Origin: Patescibacteria group bacterium
GTDB lineage: Bacteria; Patescibacteriota; Minisyncoccia; Phycocordibacterales; UBA12079
DNA: 64,000 nt
Assembly (NCBI GenBank): GCA_018817595.1
Contig: JAHITU010000024.1
Coordinates: forward strand, 11,155-75,154
Direction of reading: 5' to 3'
Below are positions 4,103 through 46,726 of this stretch, piece after piece (position 1 is the first letter of the stretch; each line of letters begins with the position of its first letter). A program made the translations under genes and the position numbers. A model generated the notes under the pieces. That model had not been told where the DNA came from and searched no databases. It worked only from the letters and a program-made list of their open reading frames with translations.

Positions 4103-4227
4103 TGATTAAATTATATCATAGAAAATATGAAAACATTAAAACATTAGAATATAAAAACAAACAGATTTTGTTCTACAAAATCTGTTAATGAAAAGTTTTA
4201 TTTTATAAAACTTTTACAAAAAAAAAT

Positions 4228-4265
4228 AATTACACTAAAACCGCGACCGCGGTTTTAGTGTAATT
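4228..4265 (-). terminator. Intrinsic terminator: 18-bp perfect stem followed on the minus strand by a U9 tract
   Basis: aattacactaaaaccgcg-ac-cgcggttttagtgtaatt, with the A-run 4217-4227 on plus giving a U-run on the minus-strand transcript. Confidence 0.55.
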
Positions 4266-4512
4266 ATTTAATTCACAAAATTAAGAGCAGTCATCCGAAG
4301 ATGACTGCTCTTAATAGAGAAATGCTTGGCACAGATAGCCCTAGAATAACTCTAGGTGAGTGCGGTGAACGGACCACCACGGTGATTCGGAAACACTTGC
4401 TCTCTTTTATTGCATTTTAGCTAGGTTATTGCACCAAGGATTCCTCCTATGTTCATTATACACCAATTTAAAATTAACAAGCAAATCAATTGTGAATAAC
4501 TCAACCATTAAA
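4266..4512 (-). ncRNA. Candidate structured leader or small RNA between two terminators, upstream of the O-antigen-ligase/TPR gene
   Basis: Minus-strand TATAAT at 4455-4460. Locally GC-rich (about 50%) core at 4320-4440. A 13-bp hairpin capped by a UUCG tetraloop (4284-4313 on minus: aagagcagtcatc-UUCG-gatgactgctctt). Long-range pairing ccttggtgca...tgtgccaagc. Ends at the 4228-4265 terminator. No protein-coding potential. Confidence 0.3.
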
Positions 4513-4549
4513 AATAAAAAAAGTAGGGATGCTATCCCTACTTTTTTTA
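4513..4549. terminator. Bidirectional intrinsic terminator downstream of ndk
   Basis: aaaaaaagtagggat-gct-atccctacttttttt: a 9-bp stem flanked by an A-run and a T-run. Confidence 0.6.
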
Positions 4550-4560
4550 TTAATATATTC

Positions 4561-11677: not shown

Positions 11678-11764
11678 ATTTATTTTCTTTAAATATAAAC
11701 CGCCTTAAAACTAGCGGGATACTTGCTTATCCTATCAAAAACACCCCTTGATGTCAATTAAATA

Positions 11765-11794
11765 AAGTATTTAATTTCAATAAATTAAATACTT
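11765..11794 (-). terminator. Intrinsic terminator ending the ABC/giant-protein transcription unit, upstream of rpsZ
   Basis: 12-bp inverted repeat aagtatttaatt-tcaataa-attaaatactt, followed by a T-rich tract on the minus strand. Confidence 0.45.
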
Positions 11795-11836
11795 TCAACA
11801 ATAATTAAAAGGTTTAACTTTAGTTATTGTGTTATT

Positions 11837-13057
11837 TCATTTATATCTTAAAGCCTGAAGAGCATCTAATCGAGCAGCTCTTCTTGAAGGAGAAATTCCT
11901 GTTAATAAACCTACAGCCATGGAGAAAATTACTATACTAAAAATGAACCATGGAGGGTTATAAAATATATCTACAAAAACCCCTCCTAGAGAACGAGCCA
12001 ATATATTTAATGCAAAATTAAATACCCATTCTACTACTATACCAACCACGACTCCTATAACACCTCCCAAAAAACCCATAACTATAGCTTCACTTAGAAA
12101 AATAAAAGCAATATCTTTATTAGAAGCACCAATAGCTTTCATAATACCAACTTCATTCGTTCTTTCTAAAAGAGTAATAGTCATAGTATTAAACATTCCA
12201 ATTGCTGATACCACTAAAGCAATAAAACCAAATACTCCCAGAATAACCTGAATAGCACTAAAGATTTTGTTAATTTGATCAACTGTATCGGACAAAGCAG
12301 AAACTAAAAATCCCATATCAAAAATCTTTTCTCTCGCAGGGGATAAAAATTCATTTGATTTTACTTTAACCTTTAATTCATCATATCTATTTATACTTAG
12401 GTCACTAAGAAAACCTAAAGGCAAAAAAACAAAAGAAGAATCAGAGTTATCTATCACTCCTACAATTTTAAATTTTTCGTTTAAATCCACTATTTCTATT
12501 TCTCCTTCTACTAAAACTTCTTCGTATTCAATATTTTGAGTTATCTCCCTAGGTAGAAATACCTGAAAAGAAACTTCTGAACCGATAACTTCTTCTTCCT
12601 TTAAATCAAATAATTTAATCACAGCACTTGAAACTAAGATTTCAGGAGTATTGTTGTCAAATAATTTCCCTATTGATGGAATAATCCCTCCTAAATCAAA
12701 ATAATCAGTATTCACAGAATAAACTGTTGTATTAGCAATTAAATTATTTATACTCATTTGAGCAGGTAGAGTTATTTTTGGACTCACTTTATCAACTTCT
12801 TCAAAAGCTAATATTTTATCTATATTATCTTTATCCAAAACAATAGTTTCTACTTTCCCAGGAGCAACATCCAAAGATAATAGGGATTCACTAGTAGCGA
12901 TTTCTTTTAATAAAAGATCCTGTAAACCATAACCCATACCAACCAAAAATAGTACCGATCCAAAACCGACACCTAAACCAAGGACCGTCAAAAAGGTACG
13001 ACTTGATCGTCCTTTGAAACCTCTTATTGACAATCTAAATAGATCTGAATATAACAT
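11837..13057 (-). CDS. ABC transporter permease, MacB/FtsX family
   Basis: N-terminal TM helix, a large extracytoplasmic domain, and a C-terminal FtsX-type 3-TM module (MKAIGASNKDIAFIFLSEAIVMGFLGGVIGVVVG). Confidence 0.75.
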   Translation of the reverse strand: MLYSDLFRLSIRGFKGRSSRTFLTVLGLGVGFGSVLFLVGMGYGLQDLLLKEIATSESLLSLDVAPGKVETIVLDKDNIDKILAFEEVDKVSPKITLPAQMSINNLIANTTVYSVNTDYFDLGGIIPSIGKLFDNNTPEILVSSAVIKLFDLKEEEVIGSEVSFQVFLPREITQNIEYEEVLVEGEIEIVDLNEKFKIVGVIDNSDSSFVFLPLGFLSDLSINRYDELKVKVKSNEFLSPAREKIFDMGFLVSALSDTVDQINKIFSAIQVILGVFGFIALVVSAIGMFNTMTITLLERTNEVGIMKAIGASNKDIAFIFLSEAIVMGFLGGVIGVVVGIVVEWVFNFALNILARSLGGVFVDIFYNPPWFIFSIVIFSMAVGLLTGISPSRRAARLDALQALRYK

Positions 13058-13060
13058 AAT

Positions 13061-14371
13061 TTATTCTTGAGATAATATTATTTCTAACTCGTTTGTAAAA
13101 TGTTTAGCACTTACACGATTAAAACCAATTCCTCCTTTTTTCAAAGGTAAATCTAACTTCTTTTCAAATTCTTTAGTATTAATTTCATTAATTAATCTTT
13201 CCTTTATTAAAATATCTAACTTCATTCTTTGTTCTAAGCTTATTTGAATATCTTTTTTATTATCCAAAAGATATCTTCTTATTTCTTCAGCTTTTAAATC
13301 CAACTCTGATTTTTCTGAATTCGGTAAATTTATTTTATGTTTTAACAAATCAGCTTCTTCTAAAATTATATCTACTTTTCTCGCAAATTCTTGAGCTGTC
13401 TGTTTATAAAGACCCACTCCCCCATCTCTGAACGAATCATCAAATATCTTCTCCATAACATCGGTATCAATTTCTCCAGAAATTCTTTTAGCCACAACTT
13501 TTTCCAATCTGCTTATCTCAACAGGATTAAAATCTATTAAAAGGTGCTCTACCAAAGCCTTGGCTTTTAATTCCTCTTGCTTTAAATCTGGATAAATTTT
13601 AGCAAGTCTATTTAAAACTCCAACAATGGGTTTTTCTTCAGAAACCGATAGACTTTTATATTTAGACTTTTTATTTATTACTTCTCTGACTACTTGCCCG
13701 TCTTTCATATATAAAACTCTATGAGCATAATCAAGAAATCTATCGTCGTGAGTAACTAAAATAATTGTTTTTTTAAATTTTGTATTTAATTCTTCCAACA
13801 AACCCATCACTACATCAGTAGATTTAGAATCTAAATTTCCTACTGGTTCATCAGCCATAATAACAGACGGTTCATTTATCATAGCTCTAGCAATAGAAAC
13901 TCTTTGTCTTTGCCCCCCAGATAATTCATTAGGGAACTTATCAGCTTGTTTTAATATCCCAAAATATTTTAATAAATCTTTTGCTTTTTTCTTTCTTTCT
14001 TCTACTGGTCTTTCTATAAAAATTTGAGGTAAGATAACATTATCCAAAACACTCAAACTAGGCACTAAGTGATATGCCTGGAAAATCATTCCTATCTCGT
14101 GACGGTTAATATTCAATATATCTTTAGAAGCTAAAGATAAAATCTTTTTATCATTTATAATAATTTCCCCTGAAGTAAGTTTTTGTAGACCACTCATACA
14201 ATAAAGTAAAGTTGATTTTCCACAACCAGATGGTCCATAAATAATTACATATTCTTCAGGGTATATTTCAACGTTCACGTTTAACAAAGCGTTTGTTTCA
14301 TAGGTTTGACCTATATCATATATAAGGCTAGCGTCTTTTGTTTTTATTATGGGGTTTTTTATCATATTCAT
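13061..14371 (-). CDS. ABC transporter ATP-binding protein (MacB/LolD-like), with a C-terminal extension of about 200 aa
   Basis: Walker A GPSGCGKST, Q-loop, signature LSGGQRQRVSIARA, Walker B IMADEP, and an H-loop in VTHD. The extension beyond about aa 230 is of unknown function. Confidence 0.85.
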   Translation of the reverse strand: MNMIKNPIIKTKDASLIYDIGQTYETNALLNVNVEIYPEEYVIIYGPSGCGKSTLLYCMSGLQKLTSGEIIINDKKILSLASKDILNINRHEIGMIFQAYHLVPSLSVLDNVILPQIFIERPVEERKKKAKDLLKYFGILKQADKFPNELSGGQRQRVSIARAMINEPSVIMADEPVGNLDSKSTDVVMGLLEELNTKFKKTIILVTHDDRFLDYAHRVLYMKDGQVVREVINKKSKYKSLSVSEEKPIVGVLNRLAKIYPDLKQEELKAKALVEHLLIDFNPVEISRLEKVVAKRISGEIDTDVMEKIFDDSFRDGGVGLYKQTAQEFARKVDIILEEADLLKHKINLPNSEKSELDLKAEEIRRYLLDNKKDIQISLEQRMKLDILIKERLINEINTKEFEKKLDLPLKKGGIGFNRVSAKHFTNELEIILSQE

Positions 14372-14405
14372 TATATTATACCTGATTTTTGTTTTCGTTT
14401 AAAAT

Positions 14406-17400
14406 TTATAAACCTAGTCTTTCTAACCAACCAAATTTCTTTTCAAAGTTAGAGAAAATAATTTCTACAACATCTTGCTTTTTTTGAGGTGTTAATAAGG
14501 TGTAGTCTTTTGAGATAGATAGATTACCTTGAGAATCCTTGGACTGAACATTAAAACGATAAACAGTAGCTGGTTTTAGATTACCCAATACGGTTGTATG
14601 ACGATAAACAAGATCTTCTCTCAATTCACTACTTACTACAAATTCAGGGTTAATGGATGCTCCTTCTTGATAAAAAACTTGAGAGGTTGCCAACTCATCA
14701 GTTTGCCAAGTAATAATAGTTTGAATTTTTTTACCTTCTGAAGATACAGCTGATTCTGTTCTTAATTGTAATATCTGAGGAGGAATTACATCATCCACAT
14801 TATTAAATTCAGGAATAGTATGAGTAATTAACTCTCCGCTTTGAGTGGTTGATTTTAGACGTACAAAATATGTGGTTCCTCCCTCTAAATCTTCTATGGT
14901 AACCTCATGAGTAATACTCAGTCCTGCAACAGATTTTGTTTTTAATCTATCCTTTTGCAATTCTCCTTGATGATATGGAGTATATTCAATTTCTGTTGTT
15001 GATTCTACTGAAGTTTCCCATACAAATGTAGCTGAATGATCTTCTACATCCTTAACAGACCATTTAGTAATTTCTGGTACTTCAGCATTGGTTTTAAAAA
15101 CAAAATCTTTAGATTGAGCAATAGGTCCTACCTGTGATTTAGATTTTAATTTGTAGTGATATGTTGTACTTGGAGCTAAGTTAGAGAGAACCACAATATG
15201 AGAAGTTGTCAGCTCTTCTGCTTCTCCTCGTGTCTCTGTATATGGTTTACTTTTATTCAAATTATATTCAGCCTCTGTAGCTAACTCAATTAATGAGTTA
15301 GCTGGTTTATCAGTTCCCCAAGAAATGATAGCTGAAGACGAAGTCACCTTAACATTCGGTTCAGAACTTAAAAGTGGAGCTGGGATATATTTTGATAAAT
15401 CTTCGATAGTTTGAGTAGTTAAAACCAAGTTCTCTTCTAATTTTTGTACTGAAACCTGTCCTGCCATTTTTGAGAAAATTGAATTAACTTTTTGAGTCGC
15501 TAACTGCAATAGAGATTCTTGAGCTGTCTTAACTGTGCTACTTGTGGTTATAACAGGAGTTTCTTGAATATCTTCAATTTCTTGAGTGTCTTTCTCCACT
15601 CCTTCAAGAGAAGATAAAGTGGTGAAAGAAGCCTGGGGTGATTCAGCTTTATTACCTGAACTATCAATAGAAATAACTTTATAGAAATATTGATTTGAAG
15701 GGTAAAGTTTTGTTAAAGTTATTTTATGATTTCTACTCGTATTCAATGACATACCATTTAATAGCCCGTATTCTGGACCTGTACCATACTGAACTCCTTC
15801 ATTCGCGTCCTCGTTAGTAGCCCAAGTCACAGTAGCTGTAGTTGCACCAACATCAACTTTAACATCACTAATTACAGGAGCTTTTCTGTCAGTAACAGGA
15901 CAAGAAGCTCCTCCCCCTCCACCACCACTTGAAGCAGCGACACAAAAAGTTCCATTCCAAGAAGTATTAGAACCACAATAACTAGAACCAGCCCCTGCAC
16001 TAGCAATTCCCTCAGCTCTCGCAGCTTCTTCTCGTATGACCACAGCAGCCTCTTCAGACAAGGCTCCTAAAGTAGTAAAGAATGTTTCTGCACTAGTAGT
16101 AGCGTTCGAATTAGCATCAGTGGAAAGCACTCTGAAATAATATTTAATCTCTTCAGTTAAGCCAGATAATTTAACTGAGTGTGAAGTATCCAGAGTTGCC
16201 TTTGAAGAGGAGGCTGTATAGACTCCTGAAGTGGTTCCATAATCAACAACAGAATTTGAAGCTTCATCTGTTATCCAAGTAATGTACGCGAAAGTATCCC
16301 CAATAGTTGAAGCACTTGGATCAGTTGTAATATTAGGAGCAGTTATATCTGACGAATCTGTTGTGGTAAAGGTCCATCCCGCTCCAGCATTATCATCAGT
16401 TCTTGTATTAGAGTTGGAATCGGTACTTTTTAATCTTATGTAATAGGTGGTACCTGCTGTTAAGCCAGTTATATCAAAAGAATGGTTAGAGTTGTAGTTG
16501 TTGTTAGATTCTGTAGTTCCATAGGAATTAGATATTCCGTATTCTAGTGTTGAAGTAGCCACTTCACTGGTCGTCCAAGAAACAGTGGCTGTGGTATCTC
16601 CTATAGCAGTAATATCTGTATCACTATCAAAAGTAATTGTAGGAGCGGTCGAATCTTGAGTAGTAGTCAGACTATAATATGCAACTTCTCCATTAATAAC
16701 ATTTTTATCATTAGCTGTTCCTGAACTTACATAATAGTAATATTTAGTCCCTGCTGTTAAACCACTCACAGTCACTGAGTGTGAAGCCACTGAATCAGCT
16801 GAACCAGTTTGAGTAGCACTGGATAAATCTGAGTTAGTTGAATAATAAACATAAGAACTAGCTACAGTATCTGTAGTCCAAGTAATCACAGCTGATTCAT
16901 TATTTATAGTATCTGTAGTTACAGCAGAGATAGATGGACCTGCTAGAGTATCAAAAGTAAAACCATTATCTCCTGGAACTTTAGTAGCTGTATTATTATT
17001 AATATCCGTTGATTTAACCTGGTAATAATACGTAGTGTCTGGAGTTAAACCAGTCAAGACGATACTATGTTGTCCTAGGCCAGCAGCTGTATTTAACATA
17101 GTAGCTTTTCCAACATAAGGGGCATCTGTGAAGTCAGCTCCTGTAGCTGTAATATATTCTACTCTGGAATCGGCTAGCTCATCTGTATCCCAAGTAATAG
17201 TAGCTGACTGAGTAGTAATATTAGAAGCTGTAGTATTAGTAATAACAGGTTCAACAGCTTCTACTCCTCCCCCTCCTTCTGATCCGTCTTGAGTACCGTT
17301 AGCTGTTCCTGCAATAGCTGAAGAGTAAGCTGAAATATTTCCATCGGCATCAATTGAAAGAACTTTGTATTGATGAGTAGAATCAGCACTAAGACTTCTA

Positions 17401-20282
17401 TCCACATAATAATTCAAAGTTCTATCTGTAATAGTTGATTCTAATGAATAGTTAATTCCATCAGTGGCATGATAAACCTTGTAGGAACCAAAACCAGGAC
17501 CTGGATTATCAACAACTCCCCAAGTTAAAAACAAATCATAAGTCGCAGGAGTCACATTAACATTAGAGATATCTTGAATAACAACATTAGCAGGTGTATT
17601 GGGAGTAGTAGCATTAAGAACAGAAGATTCATTTCCATAAACATCTCTGAATTTAACATAAACAGTATCTGGATCAGTTGTGCTTTGGGTATCACTAGTT
17701 GAATATGATTCCCATGAAGCTCCTGCAAAACCAGAATCTAAAGAAATCATCATTTCTTTGTCTGAATCATCTGTAGCTGCCAAAGTCAAAGTAGCTGGAC
17801 TGGTAGAATTATCTACAATGACAGAAGTTGATGTAGGGGCAGTAGTATCTAAAATACCGGCTATGGTAGTAGAAGCCACGGTATTATTAGCCGCTTCTTT
17901 ATCGTCAAAGGTTGCTCTCATTTGAAAACCTGTTGTATACAAATCAGCCACAGTAGTTGAAGCTATCCATGTTGCTGTATAAGTTAAATATGAATCTTCT
18001 AAGACTTTGTTATCTGTGTATCCATCAGAGTTGTCATCAATCACTTCCCCACTACCTGGGGCTACACCATAAATAATTGATGAAGTAGCAATAGAATTCC
18101 AAGAAGATCCATTGTAATATTCAAAAGTAGGTGTTACATAATTAGGGATAACAGTTCCACTGGTTGTATCGGCATCTTTAATTTCATAAGAAATGTCTAC
18201 CACTCCATCTGTTCCTTGTACTGCTGTGAAAGTTCCGACTAAAGGAGCTCCATTAGCCACATAGATAGGAATAATATTATCAACCGTAGGTGAAGTTAAT
18301 CCAGGTTCAATCACTACTTTATATTGAAACCACTGATCATTAGATCCGTCTTTTAGAGCTGTAGGGATTACTGTAGTGTCACAAGCAACAGAACTTGTTA
18401 ATTTAGTACAACCGCTGGTTAAAAAGTTAGGAGTGGATGATGCTATTTCAGACCAAATAGCTGAATCTAAACCGACAGCAGAAGTGGCTGTTCTTAAATA
18501 CATTTTAACTTGTGAATTAGTTGGTAGAGTTGTATTCTCTGTCCAATTAATTCCTGCCATTACATTAGCAACTGCTTCTGTATTATATTTAGAAGAGATT
18601 AAATTTTCATTATTTTCAAAATAAGTATAATTAACTTTAATCTGATCAATTTCCGGAGTTGCGGCACTATCAGTTGTTGATAAATCCATCGCAAAATCTA
18701 AAGTAGTAGTTGTTCCAGCTGTAAACCCTCCACTAGTTGACCAATCTGCAGAATTCAATGCTTCCAATACTGTTTTAGACATTCCTTGAGATTGTAAATT
18801 AGCTAAAGAGGATAAGGCCCAGGCTGAACCAGTCCAATATTTCCAGGTTGTTCTTCCGTCGAAAGATACTAGATATTTTATATCTGTGTTAGTTGGAGTG
18901 GTTTGGGTTAAATCTACGTCTGTGATTGCAGAATAATTTGATACATCTATTTGAGTGGTATTTGTTGTAATTATGTAATATGGTGTTATTGGATAAGGAG
19001 AACTATAACTACTAATATCCATCATTTCTATTTCTGCTATAGAAATCGTAGTTCCACTTGAAACTGGAGCTGTGACATTTATTCGATAATAATTATATGC
19101 AATAGTATTCCCTATATCATATGTCTTCCATTCATGATATACCCAATCAGTAACATTACTCTGTGTATCAAGAGTAACCCAATTAGATCCATCATTTGAA
19201 CCGAGAAAAGTCCAATTCTTTGGCATTGTTTCATCTACTGAAAGATCTCCGGTCATACGATACCTTTTTATAATTTTAGTCTCTGGGAAAAGATATTGAA
19301 TCCAATGATTTAAACCTTGATTAAATGTTCTCCAATGAGTAGTTAAATTATTATCAAAAGCTTTGGTGGCATCATTACCGCCCGCAACATAATAAATACT
19401 AGCTGTCGCTGTTCCTCCATTACATAAATCATTTGAATAATTAATTACTGTTCCTTGTAATTTCCCAACCCCACCAACAATATCTGTTTTAGATGAATCC
19501 TCTTGTGTGTAATCTCCCTCTGTTGTGAAATCTATAGTGCTTGAAGCTGTTTGTGCTATTACTGTAATATCAGTTCCAGCATTAACACCAGAAGATTTAG
19601 AATAATATTTATCCCAATCTGATTGGTTAGATGTATGATTAGCTGTAGTTACAGTATCGACTCCTCCCACCCATGAAGCTTGAGTAAAATTATAGGTAGC
19701 AGCTTTAACAACAGAAAGTGGATATATTAAAGAAGAAACTAAAACAAAAATTATTCCAATAATTCCAATAGAAGTTTTTATAGTTGTTTTTATTCTGTTC
19801 TGTTTATGAAAATTAATCAATTGTTGTTCAAGAGAAATAGCTTGTTTTTTATCTACTTCTTCCCCTCTTTTGATTTGATTAATAATTTTATCTAAATCTA
19901 AATATTCAGTAGGACAGTGTTGTTTAAACTCATTTAAAATTTCATTCTCAACTAGAACTAAAGAATCTTTAGAAGATCTAAATAACAAAGCAAGAGAATA
20001 AATCAGTCTACGATAAGAATCAATTTCATCTTTGTTTTGAATTCTTTTGTATTCTTTTTTTAATAATTCTCCAACGATAGGAACAGAGCTATCTGTAATC
20101 TGAGAAATTATAATTAAAGATAAAATAAAAGCCAAAAGAATAATAAAAAAGATTATTCCTCCTACTAAATTCCATAGATAAAACAAAGTAAATACAGTTA
20201 GTAAAAACGTAATTACAGACAACAAAAAAGATACGTAAAAAGCCATCTGTTTTCTTAATTTAAACAAATATTTATTCATCAT
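14406..20282 (-). CDS. Giant (1958 aa) membrane-anchored surface protein with an F5/8-type-C (discoidin)-like domain and at least 8 fibronectin-III-like repeats
   Basis: N-terminal hydrophobic helices. A discoidin-like segment (NLTTHWRTFNQGLNHWIQYLF...NWTFLGSNDGSNWVTL). Repeated units of about 90 aa of the form TATITWDTDELADSRVEY...LTGLTPDTTYYYQVKSTD. Thr/Ser/Gly-rich. Confidence 0.7.
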   Translation of the reverse strand: MMNKYLFKLRKQMAFYVSFLLSVITFLLTVFTLFYLWNLVGGIIFFIILLAFILSLIIISQITDSSVPIVGELLKKEYKRIQNKDEIDSYRRLIYSLALLFRSSKDSLVLVENEILNEFKQHCPTEYLDLDKIINQIKRGEEVDKKQAISLEQQLINFHKQNRIKTTIKTSIGIIGIIFVLVSSLIYPLSVVKAATYNFTQASWVGGVDTVTTANHTSNQSDWDKYYSKSSGVNAGTDITVIAQTASSTIDFTTEGDYTQEDSSKTDIVGGVGKLQGTVINYSNDLCNGGTATASIYYVAGGNDATKAFDNNLTTHWRTFNQGLNHWIQYLFPETKIIKRYRMTGDLSVDETMPKNWTFLGSNDGSNWVTLDTQSNVTDWVYHEWKTYDIGNTIAYNYYRINVTAPVSSGTTISIAEIEMMDISSYSSPYPITPYYIITTNTTQIDVSNYSAITDVDLTQTTPTNTDIKYLVSFDGRTTWKYWTGSAWALSSLANLQSQGMSKTVLEALNSADWSTSGGFTAGTTTTLDFAMDLSTTDSAATPEIDQIKVNYTYFENNENLISSKYNTEAVANVMAGINWTENTTLPTNSQVKMYLRTATSAVGLDSAIWSEIASSTPNFLTSGCTKLTSSVACDTTVIPTALKDGSNDQWFQYKVVIEPGLTSPTVDNIIPIYVANGAPLVGTFTAVQGTDGVVDISYEIKDADTTSGTVIPNYVTPTFEYYNGSSWNSIATSSIIYGVAPGSGEVIDDNSDGYTDNKVLEDSYLTYTATWIASTTVADLYTTGFQMRATFDDKEAANNTVASTTIAGILDTTAPTSTSVIVDNSTSPATLTLAATDDSDKEMMISLDSGFAGASWESYSTSDTQSTTDPDTVYVKFRDVYGNESSVLNATTPNTPANVVIQDISNVNVTPATYDLFLTWGVVDNPGPGFGSYKVYHATDGINYSLESTITDRTLNYYVDRSLSADSTHQYKVLSIDADGNISAYSSAIAGTANGTQDGSEGGGGVEAVEPVITNTTASNITTQSATITWDTDELADSRVEYITATGADFTDAPYVGKATMLNTAAGLGQHSIVLTGLTPDTTYYYQVKSTDINNNTATKVPGDNGFTFDTLAGPSISAVTTDTINNESAVITWTTDTVASSYVYYSTNSDLSSATQTGSADSVASHSVTVSGLTAGTKYYYYVSSGTANDKNVINGEVAYYSLTTTQDSTAPTITFDSDTDITAIGDTTATVSWTTSEVATSTLEYGISNSYGTTESNNNYNSNHSFDITGLTAGTTYYIRLKSTDSNSNTRTDDNAGAGWTFTTTDSSDITAPNITTDPSASTIGDTFAYITWITDEASNSVVDYGTTSGVYTASSSKATLDTSHSVKLSGLTEEIKYYFRVLSTDANSNATTSAETFFTTLGALSEEAAVVIREEAARAEGIASAGAGSSYCGSNTSWNGTFCVAASSGGGGGGASCPVTDRKAPVISDVKVDVGATTATVTWATNEDANEGVQYGTGPEYGLLNGMSLNTSRNHKITLTKLYPSNQYFYKVISIDSSGNKAESPQASFTTLSSLEGVEKDTQEIEDIQETPVITTSSTVKTAQESLLQLATQKVNSIFSKMAGQVSVQKLEENLVLTTQTIEDLSKYIPAPLLSSEPNVKVTSSSAIISWGTDKPANSLIELATEAEYNLNKSKPYTETRGEAEELTTSHIVVLSNLAPSTTYHYKLKSKSQVGPIAQSKDFVFKTNAEVPEITKWSVKDVEDHSATFVWETSVESTTEIEYTPYHQGELQKDRLKTKSVAGLSITHEVTIEDLEGGTTYFVRLKSTTQSGELITHTIPEFNNVDDVIPPQILQLRTESAVSSEGKKIQTIITWQTDELATSQVFYQEGASINPEFVVSSELREDLVYRHTTVLGNLKPATVYRFNVQSKDSQGNLSISKDYTLLTPQKKQDVVEIIFSNFEKKFGWLERLGL

Positions 20283-20345
20283 ATTTGTCTTTAATTATAT
20301 ATAAATTAACTCATTCAATCCAATTAATTTGGGGACAAGACTTAT

Positions 20346-20372
20346 TAAAAAACCACCTTTTGGTGGTTTTTT
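20346..20372. terminator. Bidirectional terminator after rplE, marking the end of the rpsS-rplE transcription unit
   Basis: aaaaaaccacc-tttt-ggtggtttttt. Confidence 0.55.
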
Positions 20373-20378
20373 AATTCT

Positions 20379-20939
20379 TTATCTTTTTTTTCTTTTTTTT
20401 TCAGCTTCTGTTTTAAAAGGGAAACCTAGATATCGCAAAAAAACTTCCGCTTCTTTTTTATCTTTGGCTGTAGTTACTATTGTAATAGACATTCCAAAGA
20501 CATCTCTTATTTCTTCATCAGAAGTTTCAGGGAAAATAATATGTTCTTTGATTCCCAAAGTAGCATTTCCCATTTCATCAATTGATGATAGTTTCAAACC
20601 TCTAAAGTCTTTTGTTCTAGGAATAGAAATATTGATTAATTTATCCAAAAAACCAAACATTCTGTCCCCTCTTAACGTTACTTGATAACCCACATTTTCT
20701 CCATCTCTTAATTTAAAAGCAGCGATTGATTTTTTAGCTTTTCTTACAGCAGGTTTTTGACCAGTAATTTTAGTTAATCTATCTAAAATTAAAGCATCTC
20801 TATCTTTTGTATTTCTAGAAGAACCTGTGCCTACATTCAAAATAACCTTCTCCAACTTAGGAGTTTGCATTTTATTCTTATATCCAAATTCTGATTTTAA
20901 TGTTTCAAAAGTTTGATTTTGTTTTTCTTTTATGTTCAT
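20379..20939 (-). CDS. rplE: 50S ribosomal protein L5
   Basis: PKLEKVILNVGTG....D.......L..ITGQKP...AKKSIAAFKLR.G..VG..VTLRGDRM..FLDKLI...PR..DFRG. Confidence 0.9.
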   Translation of the reverse strand: MNIKEKQNQTFETLKSEFGYKNKMQTPKLEKVILNVGTGSSRNTKDRDALILDRLTKITGQKPAVRKAKKSIAAFKLRDGENVGYQVTLRGDRMFGFLDKLINISIPRTKDFRGLKLSSIDEMGNATLGIKEHIIFPETSDEEIRDVFGMSITIVTTAKDKKEAEVFLRYLGFPFKTEAEKKRKKR

Positions 20940-24840: not shown

Positions 24841-27800
24841 TTAAATCTCTTGGAAACTTGGAACCAACATAAATTCCAAAGAAACTGATTCTGAAGGAGC
24901 CCCTACTTCTGTTCCGTTCTGACAAGTTAAAGTAAATTCTGATTTGTGTTCAATAGCAGGAGTAGTAAATGAACCAGAAATTATTCCACTTTCAGATTGG
25001 GCTTGAGTGTAATTGTACGTAGCAATAAATCCATCCGGTCCTTCTAGTGTACAAGAAGTAGCATTGCCAATTCCACTCCAAATGATTTCTCTAGTTTTTC
25101 CTTTGACTACCCAATAAATATTATCATCAGTTCTAAATCCTAAATTAGTTGGAGTTCCTGTAATAGTTTTTGATGCAGGAATAATAGGAGTGGGGCAAGC
25201 AGATACAGGAGGAACCACAGCATTACACAAACCGTCACAACCAATAATTCCAGTACCTGTCATATAACAAGAGTTTGTTCCCGCAGTACAAACTGTACCG
25301 TACCCAACAGGATTAGCAGGAACTGAGGCTGAACAAGTTCCGTCACACTGGATAGTTCCTGAAGCTGTTGTGCCACAAGCATTAGCAGCTGAAGTACAAG
25401 CATCACCTAGATCATCAGGATTATCAGGAGCTGAAACAGAACAATCACCCGTACATTCAATTTGTCCATAATTTACATCCCCACAAGAATTAGCATCTGA
25501 TTCACAAGGGTCTCCTAAACCAGCAGGTACAGTAGGGACAACGGCTGAACAGGTTCCATTACAAGCAATCGTTCCGCTCCCTTTATCTCCGCATAGATTT
25601 GGAGAAGATTGGCAATAACTTCCATAACTGGCTACACAACAAGATACTGTATTACAGCTCTGATATTGAATATTTGAACCTGCACAATACGCTCCCCCTC
25701 CTGATGGGTATGGATTTGAACAAGTTCTTGTTGAATATTGAGTTCCTCCTCCACAAACAACTGTACAAGGAGACCAAGCAGACCAAGCAGACCAACCTCC
25801 GTTTACAGCAGGGCTAACCACTGTAAAATAAACAGGAGCATTAGCATAGGGTGTACCTGAAAAATCAGAGATCCTGAAATTATAGTGAACTCCTTCATAT
25901 TGCCCATACTGCACCCAATGACTATAGGGGGTAAATCCATAATTTGGCAATAAGGAATTACACACTTCAGGGCCTGTCCAATTATTCCTTTCCATGTACC
26001 AACCACTATTAAGTTGCTCAGCTTTATTACTACAATAAAGATCATTATTAAATTCTTGTGGATAACCATAATAAGTTTTAAACCATCGCTCATCGTCCCA
26101 ATGAAACCAAGTGTAATAAGACCCTGGGGAACTAGGAGCACTTGCACTAAAAGTATAATAAGAACTACCCCTTCCTATATAAAAAGAACCTGCAGGATAG
26201 GGTATAATAGCATAATACTGACTACTAGTAACAGAATTCCAACAAACAATAGAACTTTCATACATTGTAGCTGTAATTGTTTCATAAGGGTTATAAGTAC
26301 TTTTGTTTAAGCTAATATTCCAAGTAAATGAATGATCCCAAAACCGATCTGCTCCACCAGCCCTAACAGCATAATTAATTCTATAGGAAGCAGCGTCGGC
26401 TACATTATAAGAACTCCCAAAAAAAGCAAAAGCTTGCAAAAAAACAAAAAAAACAATAACAAAAGTCGGAAATTTAAACCCTTTGTTTTTAAAATAAACT
26501 AAACTCACCAAAATTAAAAACCCTACACCTAATAACAGGTATACTAATAAAGAATTTCCTCTGTCTAGATCAAAATCAAATTTTGTATAGGAAAGAACTT
26601 CTCCTGAGTCATTATCAATTACTTGGATATTTACTTTTGGAAAGAGACAGTCTTTGTTAATTTGAAAATCTATAATCTGATTCAGGGAAAATTGATCAAT
26701 TTCAACCTTTAAAATATCTCCACAACTGTTATTATTTTTATCTACAACTTCGATTTTAGCTATTACATTTTCTACAAAAGAAGGTCCTAGTCTCGAACCA
26801 TAAAAAGAGTCAGCTGAACCACTGTAAAATAAGTTTATCTTGGCTATCTCTCCAGATTCATAAATTGTTTTATCGAGTGAAAGATTAGGAATAGTACTTC
26901 CTTTTCCTCTCAAAACATAATGAGCTGAAACAAAATCAACAGGAATATTTAAACTGTTATTAAAAGTTAATTTAACATCATAGGCTTGAGATTTTTCTGG
27001 TTTAGGTATTTCCAAAGAAAAAGTTTTCTTCTCTAAAGCTTTTATTTCAATGTTATCTTGTGAGAGTTGAGGAGTTTCAACTTTTTCTCCAAAAGTTGAT
27101 CTATAAAAAGTTTCGAAAGCAGGAATCAAAGACAAATCTTTATCAGAGTGGTTTTCTATCTCACAATTTAATTTCAATATTTCTTCTGGATTAACATCCA
27201 CGCCTTGGTCTAAAGTATAATGAGGGTCCAATTCTTCTCCTTCGATATTAAAAAAACAACTTGGTTTTATGATTTCCACAAATGAATTATCTCCTTCAAG
27301 CGTAACTTCACCTAAACTACCTAACCCTAAAATTAAACCTTCTTTATTTTTACTGACTATATATAATTGATATATTCCATTCAAATAATCAGGAGCATCA
27401 TATTTAATTTTTTTAATTATTTCTTCATTTTCTCCTAAATTGATTATTTCAGAATAAATCTTTTCATCAATAATTGATTGTGTTTGTAAACCATCATTCT
27501 CATTTATTAAAATTAAGTGCACCCCATACTGAATATCTGATTGAATCATTTCCCCGTTAGAAAGAACAAAAGATAAATCAAATTTATTATTTATTTGTTT
27601 TATTATTTTAGAATCATATATATTAAGACTTGATATCATTACTATTTCAGGAGTAATATCTTCTCCTAGTTCTTTTGTTGAATCCTCAATATATTTTTTT
27701 ATTAGATCTTGTTCATCTATAGAATCATTCTCTCCAAGCATCATTGAATTCATAAGATTAATTTCTTCTTGAGTTAATTCTTTTGGTGCACCAAAGCCTT

Positions 27801-27879
27801 CTTGTGCTGAAACATTTAGAGTACAATACCCTAAAATTAAAACAGTACAAAACAAAAAATATGTTAATATTTTTTTCAT
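24841..27879 (-). CDS. Secreted/membrane protein (1012 aa) with a thrombospondin type-1 repeat and four tandem Cys-rich modules of about 40 aa
   Basis: Signal peptide MKKILTYFLFCTVLILGYCTLNVSA. Two mid-protein hydrophobic helices. GGWSAWSAWSPCTVVCGGGTQYSTRTCSNP matches the W-x-x-W-x-x-W / CSVTCG TSR consensus. It is followed by repeats of the form CxSxANxCGxxxxGxIxCxGxCSAxxPxxP. Confidence 0.7.
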   Translation of the reverse strand: MKKILTYFLFCTVLILGYCTLNVSAQEGFGAPKELTQEEINLMNSMMLGENDSIDEQDLIKKYIEDSTKELGEDITPEIVMISSLNIYDSKIIKQINNKFDLSFVLSNGEMIQSDIQYGVHLILINENDGLQTQSIIDEKIYSEIINLGENEEIIKKIKYDAPDYLNGIYQLYIVSKNKEGLILGLGSLGEVTLEGDNSFVEIIKPSCFFNIEGEELDPHYTLDQGVDVNPEEILKLNCEIENHSDKDLSLIPAFETFYRSTFGEKVETPQLSQDNIEIKALEKKTFSLEIPKPEKSQAYDVKLTFNNSLNIPVDFVSAHYVLRGKGSTIPNLSLDKTIYESGEIAKINLFYSGSADSFYGSRLGPSFVENVIAKIEVVDKNNNSCGDILKVEIDQFSLNQIIDFQINKDCLFPKVNIQVIDNDSGEVLSYTKFDFDLDRGNSLLVYLLLGVGFLILVSLVYFKNKGFKFPTFVIVFFVFLQAFAFFGSSYNVADAASYRINYAVRAGGADRFWDHSFTWNISLNKSTYNPYETITATMYESSIVCWNSVTSSQYYAIIPYPAGSFYIGRGSSYYTFSASAPSSPGSYYTWFHWDDERWFKTYYGYPQEFNNDLYCSNKAEQLNSGWYMERNNWTGPEVCNSLLPNYGFTPYSHWVQYGQYEGVHYNFRISDFSGTPYANAPVYFTVVSPAVNGGWSAWSAWSPCTVVCGGGTQYSTRTCSNPYPSGGGAYCAGSNIQYQSCNTVSCCVASYGSYCQSSPNLCGDKGSGTIACNGTCSAVVPTVPAGLGDPCESDANSCGDVNYGQIECTGDCSVSAPDNPDDLGDACTSAANACGTTASGTIQCDGTCSASVPANPVGYGTVCTAGTNSCYMTGTGIIGCDGLCNAVVPPVSACPTPIIPASKTITGTPTNLGFRTDDNIYWVVKGKTREIIWSGIGNATSCTLEGPDGFIATYNYTQAQSESGIISGSFTTPAIEHKSEFTLTCQNGTEVGAPSESVSLEFMLVPSFQEI

Positions 27880-43162: not shown

Positions 43163-46100
43163 CTATTTTGAAATAGTTTGAGCTGAGCTTCCGCCTGATG
43201 GCAATCCGTCTACTAGGTATCCGTTTGACCAATCTACATGAGCTAGAGCAGAAGTAGTTGTAGCGTGACCTGACCAAACAAAGTCATTGTTTGTATCAGC
43301 ATCTACAGTTGTTTCTGTTCCCATCAAAGTTGCCATTGCTGGGTAAGCTGCATCTCCTGAAATCTTAGTTGTAACATTTCCTGAGAATGTACCTGTTCCA
43401 GCTGTTAATGTAGTGTCTCCTTCTACTTTAAAGTAGTAAGTAGCACCTGCTGGGATATTCAAAACTGAACTAAATTCAACTTCGTTATCACCAGTTACTA
43501 GAGTAGCTGCTGCAGTTGCAAGTAATCCGTTTGTGTATCCAGATACTGGATTTGAGAAACTTGAATCTGTGTAAGCATATACTTCTAGGTTAGTTACAGT
43601 TGTTGTTCCTGATACAGCTGAAGCTGATGAAGTAGCAACATTTACAGTAACTTGGTTAAGTCCGATTCCATCACTTAATCCATCAGCATCTTTAGCTGTA
43701 ATGCTGAATTTGTACAATTCAACATCTGTTGATGAGATTAACACTGTGTTAGAAACATTAATCTTAGCAAATTCTGGATAAGCTCTGAATACTCTCACTC
43801 CATCAACAGCAGTATCTGATGCTGATGTTGTGTTGATAGTTGTTCCTGATTGTGCTCCTACTCCTTGAGTAGATGCAGTATAACCACCGTCAAAGTTTAC
43901 TTTCAATAATGCTCCTTGTGTTCCAACTTGAGATGTTCCGATCTTTGCAAGATCTCCTTTAATTGTCATAACTTTTGATCCATCTTTTGGAATCATAAAG
44001 TCAGTTGTCAAAGTAGATGTTGCGTAATCTGTACTTGTGAATGTAGCAACACCAACTTGTGTTGTTCCATCCCACAAAGTAACTCTAGTTAAGTCTGAAG
44101 GTGAACTTGAAGCAGCAGTCAATTGTAGACCTAATTTCTTCAAGTTAATAGCTTCATTTGTTCCTGTGAATTTCAATTTAGCAAGAACTACATCTGTTGT
44201 TCCAGCAGCAACAATCTTGTATGAAGGACTTGAGTCGTCTTTAACTACTGTGAATGTACCACCTGTTGTAGCTGTCATTATTTGTCCTGATCCTGTAGGA
44301 GTAGCTGTTGTGATAGTAGATCCTGAATCAAGACCTGATCCTGTTTGAGCAGCTGTCATACTCCATAGGTAAGTGTCTCCACTTGCTGAAGCTGAAATGT
44401 TACATTTTAGAGCAATTGTTTTTAGTGTTCCTTTAGGAATTACTAGTCCAGCACTGTCTAATGTAAATGTTTGAGCTGCAGTTTCACCTGAAGCAATGTC
44501 TTTGATGTTTGAACCTGTGTTCAAAGCTGTTGTTCCATCAAATAATTGACATCCTGTTTGATATTCTGAATTTGCTCCTGTAACTGTGTTATTTAATACC
44601 AATGTATTAAATTTAACATCTTCTCCTGATGCTGTTGCATCGAATTGGAAATTAGCCATTACAAATCCTTGTGCACCAGCTACCACGTTTTGTGCTACTG
44701 GGCTTGCGGATGTGCTGATTACAGCTGTTCCAGTTTTCAATGTCATTGTGTTTGAAGTCAATGTTGCATCAGGTGTAGGTGTAATTGAGTTACCTGTTGT
44801 TTGACCTGTTACTGTTGTCCAATCATCAGTAGGATTTGTGTCAATAATAATTGTTTGATCATTAACAAAATTTGTTCCTAATTGACCTTTCAATGTGTAA
44901 GTTCCTTTTCCTAATTGGAAAGTAACTGTATCTGTGAAAGTAATTGTTCCTGTTGTTTGTGCTGATACTGAAGTATAAGCTGCATCAACTGGACCAGCTA
45001 CTACTGAACCATTAGCATCAACCAAAGAAACATTAGTGATGTCGTCTACTTGACCTACAGCTGAACTAGCTGCAGCTGACGAACCAGTAAGTGTTACGTT
45101 GAATACCATTGAAGCCACTGAGATTGCTTCTCCTTTAGCTTCAATATCGAATCCACCTAATACTTGGTTGGCAACATTTTCAGCAATATTTTGTGCTTCT
45201 ACTGTTGTTGATTTTGATCCTTGTAATGAACCATTTGAAACAGTTACTACTGAAGCATCATACCAAGGTGTTCCTGTACTGAATCCTGTTCCTGTTGAAG
45301 CAGGAGTAATTCCATATCCGTAAGTTTCACCTGTTACATAAAGATCTGTATTTTTATACAAATCAAATGCAATTGTTCTACCTGATCCTGAAATGATATC
45401 TCCTTTAATAGTGATTTCTTTTGCAAGACCTTTATCTACAACAAGTCCTGTTCCAAATGTAGATGTATAGTATTTACCATCGGATGATACCATTACATCG
45501 TAAGCAACTCCGTCAACATAAGTCTTAAGGTTTCCTAAGTCTGATGCTGAAACTGAACCTGATTGATTCCATCTAATTGAATGAAGTCTAATCTTTTCAG
45601 CTGATCCAGCTGTTACTTTTATAGATGAGAATGTGTATCCGTCTACTCCAACTTCTTTTGTAGCTGTTGCATTAGGATCGTTCACTCCTCGAGCTGGTGT
45701 AGCTGATCCAATTGATAGGGAATCATTCATTGTGTGAGCTGTTCCCATGATTGGAAGAGCACCATTAACAGCAGCTGAAGTATTTACTCCAATCACTGAA
45801 AGTGATCCAACTTGTCCTCTGTATGAAGCCATTGTTGCTGCTGCAACCATGTTTCCAGCAATAGTTACTGTTTTTGAAGTTCCAGCTTTCACTGTGAAGT
45901 TTTCTCCAACTGTAGCTTGGTGTAGTGAGTTCAAAGTTTTAGCAATTCCGATTTGTGTTCCATCTTCATCCAGTAAGATGATTCCTGCGAACGCTGCATC
46001 TGCTGCTAAACCAGTTCTCTCTATTAATAGAGAGTTAACTACTACATCTCCATCAGCACTAGCTGTAAGAATAACTTTTGTGAAAGGAATTCTTGCTGCA

Positions 46101-46726
46101 GATGATACTGCCAAAGTAGCTGCTGGTTGTGATCCTGCGGAAATAGTTAATCCTGTTCCTGCAGGTGTTACAACTGGTGTAGTTGGGTCAACTGGAGTTG
46201 TAGGTGTAGTTGCAACAGTCATAGCATTTAATTTTGCTCTTGTTGAAGCTCCTACGAATCCTGTACCTGCAGTTAATCCTACTGGTGTCAAAATTTCTGA
46301 AGCGTATTTGTTTTGGAATTTGATTACAGCTGCTTTAGTTAATCCACCAAAGTATTCTGTTTCATTTCCTTTTGATCCTACTCCTGATGCTGCGATCATT
46401 GTGTCTGAACTCATGTTCAAAACTTTTTGTAGGTTCAATACGTCTGCTCCACTATCACCCATTGTTAGGTTTTTTGTGAAGTTATAAGATACTCCTGTTG
46501 TTGTAGTAGTACCTCCCATGTTTGATAATTGTGCTTGTAATGATGAAATCATTGCAAGTAAACTACTGATTTGTGCTGTAAGTTCTTCTACTGTTTGAGC
46601 TTGAGCTGGAGCAACTGCACCACCAAAAACCAAAGTAAGAGCCATAGCAACACCTGCGAATACTGAAACAGCCTTAGCTGCTGCAGAATCTTTAAGTTTA
46701 AATATACTCATAATATGTGTTTTCAA
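43163..46726 (-). CDS. Large secreted surface (S-layer-like) protein, 1187 aa, with an N-terminal peptidoglycan-binding-domain-like module
   Basis: Signal peptide ...AVAPAQA. LTMGDSGADVLNLQKVLN...YFGGLTKAAVIKFQNKYA resembles PG_binding_1. The remainder is Thr/Gly/Ala/Ser/Val-rich beta-strand repeats. The gene is markedly more GC-rich than its flanks. Confidence 0.55.
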   Translation of the reverse strand: MKTHIMSIFKLKDSAAAKAVSVFAGVAMALTLVFGGAVAPAQAQTVEELTAQISSLLAMISSLQAQLSNMGGTTTTTGVSYNFTKNLTMGDSGADVLNLQKVLNMSSDTMIAASGVGSKGNETEYFGGLTKAAVIKFQNKYASEILTPVGLTAGTGFVGASTRAKLNAMTVATTPTTPVDPTTPVVTPAGTGLTISAGSQPAATLAVSSAARIPFTKVILTASADGDVVVNSLLIERTGLAADAAFAGIILLDEDGTQIGIAKTLNSLHQATVGENFTVKAGTSKTVTIAGNMVAAATMASYRGQVGSLSVIGVNTSAAVNGALPIMGTAHTMNDSLSIGSATPARGVNDPNATATKEVGVDGYTFSSIKVTAGSAEKIRLHSIRWNQSGSVSASDLGNLKTYVDGVAYDVMVSSDGKYYTSTFGTGLVVDKGLAKEITIKGDIISGSGRTIAFDLYKNTDLYVTGETYGYGITPASTGTGFSTGTPWYDASVVTVSNGSLQGSKSTTVEAQNIAENVANQVLGGFDIEAKGEAISVASMVFNVTLTGSSAAASSAVGQVDDITNVSLVDANGSVVAGPVDAAYTSVSAQTTGTITFTDTVTFQLGKGTYTLKGQLGTNFVNDQTIIIDTNPTDDWTTVTGQTTGNSITPTPDATLTSNTMTLKTGTAVISTSASPVAQNVVAGAQGFVMANFQFDATASGEDVKFNTLVLNNTVTGANSEYQTGCQLFDGTTALNTGSNIKDIASGETAAQTFTLDSAGLVIPKGTLKTIALKCNISASASGDTYLWSMTAAQTGSGLDSGSTITTATPTGSGQIMTATTGGTFTVVKDDSSPSYKIVAAGTTDVVLAKLKFTGTNEAINLKKLGLQLTAASSSPSDLTRVTLWDGTTQVGVATFTSTDYATSTLTTDFMIPKDGSKVMTIKGDLAKIGTSQVGTQGALLKVNFDGGYTASTQGVGAQSGTTINTTSASDTAVDGVRVFRAYPEFAKINVSNTVLISSTDVELYKFSITAKDADGLSDGIGLNQVTVNVATSSASAVSGTTTVTNLEVYAYTDSSFSNPVSGYTNGLLATAAATLVTGDNEVEFSSVLNIPAGATYYFKVEGDTTLTAGTGTFSGNVTTKISGDAAYPAMATLMGTETTVDADTNNDFVWSGHATTTSALAHVDWSNGYLVDGLPSGGSSAQTISK

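Follow-up and report, generated by a model that had tools for sequence, protein, structure and literature searches.

We analysed a 64,000-nucleotide stretch of a Patescibacteria group bacterium genome (assembly GCA_018817595.1, contig JAHITU010000024.1; hereafter the window), and describe here one giant gene in it, the open reading frame (ORF) 14406..20282 on the minus strand, which starts with ATG and encodes a protein of 1958 amino acids (aa), together with the ATPase and permease genes of an ATP-binding cassette (ABC) system lying downstream of it. We propose that the giant is a Sec-exported surface fibre of a Candidate Phyla Radiation (CPR) bacterium and the dedicated partner of this type VII ABC system, with its C-terminal module docking on the permease, an explanation to which we give about an even chance of being right. 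The link between the giant and the ABC pair is itself real, as their neighbourhood is conserved in both directions. An earlier sequence-only reading of this DNA had already tied the giant to the adjacent MacB-type system, and the recurrence of the same arrangement in many independent CPR loci with unrelated flanks bears it out; the route it favoured, coupling through the N-terminal cytoplasmic loop of the giant, did not hold up, since the N-termini of ABC-adjacent partners differ and what they have in common is a C-terminal module of fibronectin type III (Fn3) domains and an 'FGW' tail.

A large part of bacterial diversity falls to the Patescibacteria, and those in cultivation live attached to host cells; to our knowledge, little has been established about their mode of attachment beyond type IV pili. 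A conserved system of fibre, C-terminal recognition module and dedicated type VII ABC motor would be a concrete candidate, open to test, for an attachment organelle that is energy-coupled. In the one CPR bacterium studied by transposon sequencing, an envelope protein with Fn3 domains was reported to be essential (PMC10633639).

Fn3 proteins and the ABC pair are neighbours in both directions

The cassette of a giant, an ATPase (449-456 aa) and a permease with MacB_PCD and FtsX domains (387-400 aa) recurs with unrelated flanks at loci L007 and L008 and on the contig of protein P0086. A permease-anchored scan of one genome per species gave orthologs 43-51% identical in at least 437 loci of representative CPR genomes, and the best 80 of these, all from CPR metagenome-assembled genomes of many lineages, were analysed. 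In 78 of them an ATPase with a C-terminal extension directly precedes the permease, and a same-strand Fn3 protein is directly adjacent to 27 of these 78 pairs (35%), or to 23 of the 59 for which both flanks are available. Of the 528 ORFs in these regions that reach 300 aa, only 23 have Fn3 repeats, and most of these 23 are the adjacent partners. From the opposite side, a tail-anchored metagenome scan gave 373 relatives, and among the best 80 loci 79 genes were assessable: the pair was adjacent to 40 of them (ATPase directly downstream of 37, permease directly upstream of 3), 27 were cut at the 5' end and had no pair downstream, and 12 were complete and had no pair on either side.

ABC-adjacent partners share a C-terminal module

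The last ~420 aa of the giant are matched by every ABC-adjacent partner, from 222 to 2882 aa in length (blastp E 8e-8 to 2e-90), and all of these partners share the tail 'LTP...NFE..FGW'. Among 103 distinct tails the conserved positions are Ser (102), Leu (90), Thr (87), Pro (101), Ile (97), Asn (93), Phe (83), Phe (103), Gly (85) and Trp (92, or Phe in 11), and 3-8 residues, most often 6, separate the final F-x-W from the stop in all 103. A hydrophobic moment of 0.50 for the consensus marks the tail as amphipathic; it carries several charged residues and is not membrane-spanning. The smallest ABC-adjacent partners comprise an anchor, one Fn3 domain and the tail.

The N-termini of these partners vary, being plain signal peptides in some (L039, L050) and 55-145 cytoplasmic residues followed by one transmembrane (TM) segment in others (L034, L041, L066, L077, L082, L085, L086), and the full N-terminal module of the giant, which includes a TM hairpin, is present in only a minority. 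Conversely, proteins that carry this N-module and have no C-terminal tail (P0002, P0075) are not adjacent to an ABC pair. The element that tracks the pair is the C-terminal module and not the N-terminal loop. At one locus (L102:1004-18683) two tail-bearing giant genes, for proteins of 3125 and 2273 aa, are arranged in tandem with one ATPase gene downstream of both, and so one ABC system may serve several fibres.

In a mirror-tree test of 48 partner/ATPase/permease triplets, in which distances were controlled for the nucleotide-binding domain (NBD) of the ATPase, the tail module co-varied with the permease extracytoplasmic domain with a partial r of 0.21, reached by 9 of 2000 permutations; the corresponding values were 0.19 for the permease TM domain (92 of 2000) and -0.03 for the ATPase extension (1157 of 2000). 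The test of co-evolution with the permease domain that the sequence-only reading had suggested thus gives a weak co-variation for the tail module, and none between that module and the ATPase extension. The direction of this weak signal favours a contact outside the cytoplasm.

The pair resembles known type VII systems and belongs to none of them

The ATPase gene follows the giant after 34 bp and the permease gene follows the ATPase after 3 bp. Judged by domain content and profile scores, the two classify as a type VII ABC system that is not FtsEX, LolCDE or MacAB. The permease has TM segments at aa 22-40, 271-289, 324-342 and 371-389, with MacB_PCD (PF12704) matched over aa 21-244, and its best full-length NCBIfam match is MacB (E 2e-24). 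The best NCBIfam matches of the NBD are LolD, DevA, DarD, MacB and FtsE, all under the equivalog cut-offs, and its motifs are intact (Walker A GPSGCGKST, signature LSGGQRQR, Walker B ADEP, H-loop THD).

The C-terminal extension of the ATPase, ~200 aa, soluble and helical, is found in 76-78 of the 80 CPR loci and is homologous across cassettes (E ~1e-12), the permeases of which are 44-47% identical. It had no Pfam match even at E<=10, no PDB match in a sequence-profile search (best E 0.35) and no match in a word-seeded search with the extension alone; its single-sequence model had a predicted local distance difference test score (pLDDT) of 66. A helix-hairpin-helix reading of its 'GG[VIL]G...A' motifs was rejected, as neither Pfam nor the PDB profile search gave a match and, as we read it, the Gly-to-Ala spacing is unlike the canonical GhG-x3-A.

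The cassette is like FtsEX and its partners EnvC, PcsB, CwlO and RipC in having a four-TM FtsX-type permease with an extracytoplasmic domain between TM1 and TM2, a separate ATPase of the LolD/FtsE clade, no membrane-fusion protein, and a dedicated extracytoplasmic partner with a helical segment, often encoded nearby. It differs in that its permease is ~400 aa long with a full MacB_PCD, compared to ~300 aa with an FtsX extracytoplasmic domain, in the ~200-aa extension of its ATPase, and in its partner, which is an Fn3 fibre without hydrolase, LytM or CHAP domain. We rejected the pair as the FtsEX of CPR bacteria, as it scores far under the equivalog cut-offs, with 176 bits for FtsE (cut-off 265) and 36-54 bits for FtsX models (cut-offs 225-255), the latter over the C-terminal domain only; a separately annotated FtsEX has been reported for CPR genomes (PMC11809585).

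With LolCDE-LolA and YbbAP-TesA, which act on protein or lipid cargo at the membrane's outer face, the cassette shares the ABC fold, the closest NBD match and a dedicated partner. In contrast to them it has a single permease gene rather than a LolC/LolE pair, contains no lipobox, LolA-like gene or TesA-like gene, and belongs to a monoderm-like CPR cell. Here too we rejected an assignment, as LolD scored 204 bits (cut-off 308), lolCE 72 (cut-off 362), and the giant has no lipobox. MacAB-TolC has in common with the cassette a permease with a MacB-like periplasmic core and an FtsX domain; it was rejected as well, since ATPase and permease are separate genes here, the NBD being unfused, and the three-gene cassette between the genes of ribosomal proteins L5 and S14 contains no MacA-type adaptor domain and no outer-membrane duct.

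The N-terminal module of the giant and its probable role in export

Three hydrophobic segments were found by hydropathy in the giant protein, all of them N-terminal: a hairpin of TM1 (aa ~14-36) and TM2 (aa 38-60), and TM3 (aa ~166-190). Over the full protein, C-terminus included, no hydrophobic segment lies outside aa 12-196. Four K/R and no acidic residues are found in aa 1-13, and none in the four-residue turn between TM1 and TM2; the loop of aa 61-165 is flanked by K/R-rich stretches, and the 15 residues past the third helix hold one K. This distribution fits a topology with the N-terminus and loop inside and the C-terminus outside. Both the arrangement given in the sequence-only reading, two helices and a third around a cytoplasmic segment (~105 aa by hydropathy and charges), and its placement of the remainder outside the cell are thus borne out by our results.

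An exhaustive profile search with aa 1-207 of the giant and its one relative as query grouped the N-module family into 61 representative clusters, of which 42 reached E<=1e-10, with members of ~180 to 2722 aa; a word-indexed search with a 23-sequence alignment of the module returned only 5 proteins. The conserved blocks are the TM hairpin, 'SY.KD.SIP...L.R.YF..KF' right behind TM2, 'LLFKSS.ESF..L.EE', and 'HK..QK+' entering TM3. The AlphaFold2 model of the module is all-helical (pLDDT 87); the module had no Pfam or NCBIfam match and its model no fold match in the PDB.

The family ends in 'S.IFP' and then a small-x-Ala site directly ahead of 'A(T/S)Y.W.Q.DWSGG', with Ala at -1 in 27 of 29 members and S, T or V at -3 in 22 of 29. 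In four relatives (P0004, L039, L050, L021a) a plain signal peptide precedes this same mature start, which falls where cleavage is predicted. TM3 of the giant reads KQNRIKTTIK - TSIGIIGIIFVLVSSLIYP - LSVVKA↓A (the arrow marks the putative cut) and lies 165 residues from the N-terminus; past it the sequence is VKA↓ATY, with no lipobox Cys. Because the small-x-Ala site is conserved and ordinary signal peptides precede the same mature start in relatives, TM3 probably serves as a Sec signal that signal peptidase I is likely to cut. The possibility, raised in the sequence-only reading, that the N-terminal helices are a cleaved signal peptide and nothing else would then apply to TM3, which looks cleavable with its conserved Pro and small-x-Ala, and not to the TM1-TM2 hairpin and loop, which family conservation marks as a module of their own.

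The N-module is joined to unrelated extracellular regions, such as the Gly-rich domain of P0002 and the Lcl_C domain of P0075, and at L063:1447-8646 it is a separate gene of 251 aa, 7 bp upstream of a 2145-aa Fn3 giant with its own signal peptide. Stand-alone N-modules may also exist elsewhere: family members of ~185-215 aa (P0054, P0062, P0088) stop within TM3, though these could be truncated sequences. P0075, whose Lcl_C domain has a C-type-lectin fold, adjoins bAvd and reverse-transcriptase genes of a diversity-generating retroelement (L005:100-3614), and N-module proteins may hence be targets of diversification; a 1754-aa Fn3 protein is encoded downstream of it. In the syntenic relative GCA_034661035.1 (L002:4603-6816), the 519-aa P0002 and a 62-aa ORF are found between NDK and a Wzy_C/TPR gene, compared to an interval of only ~460 bp in the window (4103-4560), and therefore N-module genes are gained and lost at several sites within this conserved stretch.

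Proposed mechanism and its alternatives

Dedicated extracytoplasmic partners are known for type VII ABC systems (PMC12646458, PMC7668044), and there are precedents for mechanical work by them, FtsEX acting on EnvC or PcsB, and LolCDE and YbbAP on cargo (PMC7668044, PMC8333309, PMC12646458). In the mechanism that we propose, the fibre would be exported by Sec via TM3, probably with cleavage by signal peptidase I. From the outer tip to the base it would comprise the stalk starting ATY.F.Q..W.GG, the discoidin and other beta-rich domains, a rod of nine Fn3 domains and the C-terminal module, the discoidin/beta-rich region being the probable binding end for a host or environmental glycan. The C-terminal module (a helical linker, three Fn3 domains and the 'NFE..FGW' tail) would dock on the extracytoplasmic domain of the permease, and ATP hydrolysis would be passed through the membrane to hold, activate or release the fibre base, such that the ABC system would work by mechanotransmission, like FtsEX-EnvC/PcsB, LolCDE-LolA and YbbAP-TesA, and not by channel transport. 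The N-module (TM hairpin, ~105-aa helical domain and third helix) would be a separate, exchangeable module, and the cassette would be transcribed as its own unit. It is possible, though we would lean against it, that the tail 'LTP...NFE..FGW' serves as a sorting or anchoring signal of a new C-terminal kind, read by a CPR-wide type VII ABC pair with a unique ATPase extension, a pair that would be an ATP-powered anchor or actuator of host-binding fibres in bacteria whose life is spent attached to other cells; if true, tail and pair would be the functional counterpart, for adhesion, of sortase/LPXTG or of the FtsEX-hydrolase switch.

Several observations weigh against our proposal. Besides the 12 complete tail-bearing genes without an adjacent pair, the giant's nearest ortholog (L091, at 69% identity) has no ABC pair downstream and adjoins P-type ATPase, RmuC and GroES/EL genes, and so the location of the giant gene is fluid. 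Moreover, ~60% of the ABC pairs lack an adjacent partner and are surrounded by housekeeping genes (such as Tgt/FolD, SecY, NusB), for which reason the role of the pair may be broader. The signal in the mirror-tree test is weak, and tests of this kind are confounded by shared phylogeny. The first two of these points, along with the generic public annotation, would suit the view that there is no functional link at all, the giant being a generic CPR adhesin and the pair a housekeeping or resistance system (for efflux, antimicrobial-peptide defence or envelope maintenance) that is its neighbour by chance. We consider this decidedly unlikely, as it leaves without explanation the two-way adjacency seen in many CPR lineages whose flanking genes are unrelated, always on the same strand and for the most part in one gene order, the conservation of a partner-specific C-terminal module in proteins of 222 aa as well as 2882 aa, and a co-variation of tail module and permease that exceeds the NBD signal. 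Coupling from the inside, in which cytoplasmic aa 61-165 would contact the ABC system, for example the ATPase extension, and hydrolysis would be coupled via the N-terminal anchor, is in our view very unlikely: both regions are conserved and helical, and N-module giants are often ABC-adjacent (5 of the 7 complete genes in the tail scan, and in addition those of the window, L007, L008 and L063), yet most ABC-adjacent partners lack the N-module and carry plain signal peptides or unrelated N-terminal extensions, N-module proteins without the tail are not adjacent to the pair, the ATPase extension occurs in essentially all pairs whatever the partner's N-terminus, tail module and extension do not co-vary, and a cleaved TM3 would detach aa 61-165 from the fibre.

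Two further alternatives concern what the pair does to the giant. It could act as a LolCDE-like extractor that pulls an uncleaved TM3 anchor or the amphipathic C-terminal helix from the outer leaflet and releases the fibre to the cell wall, the S-layer or a host. The fold and the closest NBD matches (LolD, DevA, MacB) would agree with this, as would a sorting-signal-like amphipathic tail at a fixed distance from the C-terminus and the position of the pair directly behind SecY in several lineages, and YbbAP and LolCDE are known to pull hydrophobic cargo from the membrane (PMC12646458, PMC8333309); against it, the cassette contains no LolA-like acceptor or lipobox and the tail carries several charges and is not membrane-spanning. 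The present data accommodate both extraction and docking, though we regard such an extractor as unlikely. That the tail is instead a secretion signal and the pair exports the giant, much as in type 1 secretion, is hardly credible to us: a motif at a fixed C-terminal distance and the adjacent ABC genes speak for it, yet according to structural work the four-TM type VII permease fold has no transmembrane substrate path (PMC5985334), the giant has a Sec-type signal of its own, and no RTX repeats, C39 domain, or membrane-fusion or outer-membrane component are found nearby. Docking of the C-terminal module on the permease is the explanation that we retain.

Neither the literature that could be searched nor Pfam or NCBIfam contained a description of the cassette, of its tail or of the N-module. 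The individual domains and the ABC fold are known already, and public annotation is generic; what appears to be new is a type VII ABC system whose proposed dedicated partner is a giant surface fibre, recognised through a new C-terminal module. Such a fibre would be a fifth kind of partner for type VII ABC systems, beside hydrolase activators, lipoproteins, efflux ducts and lipid hydrolases. The N-terminal three-TM module, the FGW tail module and the ATPase extension are unannotated and are defined well enough for family models.

Domain architecture of the giant protein

The giant has an identical NCBI entry, MBU1046757.1, which is annotated as 'fibronectin type III domain-containing protein [Patescibacteria group bacterium]'; it belongs to the class of Fn3/discoidin surface proteins by Pfam matches exceeding curated cut-offs. 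The discoidin domain that the sequence-only reading had placed at about 19050-19420 was recovered by Pfam with nearly the same borders, F5_F8_type_C (PF00754) matching aa 292-418 at nt 19029-19409 (E 8e-10, 39.3 bits, cut-off 28.2). Pfam further matched eight Pur_ac_phosph_N-type stretches (PF16656, 178 bits, cut-off 30) and six fn3 stretches (PF00041, 99.8 bits, cut-off 25). A self-profile search gave eight strong repeats at aa 1011-1100, 1115-1196, 1213-1295, 1315-1396, 1468-1547, 1635-1723, 1735-1820 and 1834-1923 (E 1e-28 to 1e-32) and an additional classical Fn3 at aa ~896-990, nine Fn3 domains in total where at least eight had been expected. Some repeats are spaced by Gly runs (GGGG at aa ~1003-1006, GGGGGG at aa ~1452-1457), as expected, and by two helical or Cys-containing linkers.

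The repeats are 19-42% identical in pairwise comparison (mean 30%), and no tandem repeat was found at the DNA level in the gene; they are therefore old, diverged domains, and we ruled out a recent repeat expansion or an assembly artefact. The gene has raised GC and a GC skew near zero. Horizontal transfer was rejected as an explanation, since a second giant gene rich in Thr, Ser, Ala and Gly codons, at 43-47 kb, shows the same pattern, and for this reason we infer that the shift in GC stems from amino-acid composition. Among the middle domains, aa 428-570 (window 18573-19001) have no Pfam match and are 56-64% identical to parts of the otherwise unrelated proteins P0007, P0008 and P0010, an identity unusually high for a CPR protein, which suggests a widely exchanged module; one carrier, encoded on a 5.1-Mb contig, also has Laminin_G_3 and Peptidase_S74 domains.

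With MSCRAMM-type and LapA-like adhesins the giant shares an overall plan of an N-terminal signal, a distal lectin or ligand domain, a rod of Ig/Fn3-like domains and a conserved attachment element at the extreme C-terminus. It differs from them in that no LPXTG motif, C-terminal TM segment or basic tail was found in it (the C-terminus reads ...FSNFEKKFGWLERLGL), in lacking components of a type 1 secretion system, and in that its C-terminal element is the amphipathic 'NFE..FGW' helix. Instead of a sortase or a type 1 secretion system, a type VII ABC system is the machine linked to it; Pfam matched neither RTX repeats nor a C39 domain in the giant, nor any hydrolase, LytM or CHAP domain.

Insertion of the cassette at a ribosomal-cluster boundary

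The genes of the region all lie on the minus strand, in the order S19, L22, S3, L16, two short ORFs, L14, L24, L5, giant, ATPase, permease, S14, S8, L6, L18, S5, L15, SecY, Adk and Map. In a close relative (L171, GCA_900089805.1; SecY at least 90% identical) the region is collinear, with 78-87% nucleotide identity, and L5 and S14 are separated by 565 bp without a cassette (L171:4536-4887 region). Homology between the two stops at window position 20384 and resumes at 11771. A terminator-like hairpin stands directly behind L5 in the window, and a different terminator hairpin at the same place in L171; the promoter-like site and hairpin upstream of S14 are conserved in both genomes. Thus, the cassette was inserted at an existing boundary of two transcription units, where the ribosomal cluster is already split in both genomes. 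The GC-rich hairpin at 11700-11717 (minus strand), between this promoter-like site and the S14 start, is kept in L171 with compensating differences and is a candidate leader or attenuator of the S14-S8-L6 unit. The coordinates of all features are given in Table 1.

Table 1. Features of the giant gene, its ABC partners and the inserted cassette in the window (↓, putative cleavage site).
Feature	Position	Strand	Evidence
Giant gene, putative surface fibre	14406..20282	-	ORF, translation, domains, identical NCBI protein
N-terminal membrane module, aa 1-194; TM3 end ...IYPLSVVKA	19701..20282	-	hydropathy, charges, family, AlphaFold2 model
TM1, aa ~14-36	20175-20243	-	hydropathy
TM2, aa ~38-60	20103-20171	-	hydropathy
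Predicted cytoplasmic helical segment, aa 61-165 (~105 aa)	19788-20102	-	hydropathy, charges
Signal-peptide-like TM3, aa 166-194	19701-19787	-	hydropathy, conserved site
Conserved stalk start, aa 195-290, A↓ATYNFTQASWVGG, right behind signal-peptidase-I-like site VKA↓A	19413..19700	-	family conservation
Discoidin (F5/8 type C) lectin-like domain, aa 292-418	19029..19409	-	PF00754 E 8e-10, PF22633 E 4e-6
Middle beta-rich domains without Pfam match (aa 419-895) and classical Fn3 (aa ~896-990)	17313..19028	-	BLAST, self-profile, Pfam fn3
Eight purple-acid-phosphatase-N-type Fn3 domains (aa 1011-1923), with Gly-run/helical linkers aa 1397-1467 and 1548-1634	14514..17252	-	Pfam, self-profile
C-terminal partner module, aa ~1540-1958: helical linker, Fn3 #6-8, amphipathic tail ...LLTPQKKQDVVEIIFSNFEKKFGWLERLGL	14409..15665	-	blastp, tail logo
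Tail of the giant, aa 1924-1958	14409-14513	-	tail logo
ABC ATPase, 436 aa	13061..14371	-	Pfam, NCBIfam
ATPase NBD, LolD/MacB/FtsE clade, aa 1-229	13685-14371	-	Pfam, NCBIfam
ATPase C-terminal extension, aa 230-436, two 'GG[VIL]G' motifs	13064-13684	-	homology among cassettes
Type VII ABC permease, 406 aa, FtsX-type C-terminal domain	11837..13057	-	PF12704 E 2e-16, PF02687 E 3e-22
Permease MacB-like extracytoplasmic core domain between TM1 and TM2, aa ~41-270	12248-12937	-	Pfam, TM segments
Three-gene cassette inserted between rplE (L5) and rpsN (S14), 8.6 kb	11772..20383	-	comparison with L171
Terminator-like hairpin directly behind L5, upstream of the giant, AAAAAACCACC-AAAA-GGTGGTTTTTT	20344..20375	-	sequence inspection
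Promoter-like TTGACA-17-TAGGAT (11729-11757) and small hairpin (11700-11717), upstream of S14, downstream of the cassette	11700..11757	-	sequence; both conserved in L171

In other CPR genomes the pair itself is found in the ribosomal/SecY supercluster, directly behind SecY and ahead of Map (L045, L058, L068, L074, L087, and in part L078 and L080), and the ATPase is longer in most of these loci, at 580-665 aa (478 aa in L058); this placement may hint at a secretion-related role.

The window has a GC content of ~31%. Its two short unscanned ORFs between L16 and L14 occupy the positions of L29 and S17 in L171; no L30 ORF is present between S5 and L15, and no S10, L3, L4, L23 or L2 genes were found in the window. 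The GC content and the missing L30, taken with the public annotation and the relatives recovered, identify the organism as a Patescibacteria/CPR bacterium. Directly upstream of S19, in the usual place of L2, is a gene (24841-27879, minus strand) for a 1012-aa protein with a signal peptide, two internal hydrophobic helices (aa 443-488), a thrombospondin type 1 domain and Cys-rich repeats. Two further giant secreted proteins are encoded at 35152-39150 (1332 aa, a lamin-tail domain and a beta-helix) and 43163-46726 (1187 aa, no Pfam match), neither of which has the stalk, the N-module or the FGW tail; an IS200-like transposase gene lies between them, at 40604-41371.

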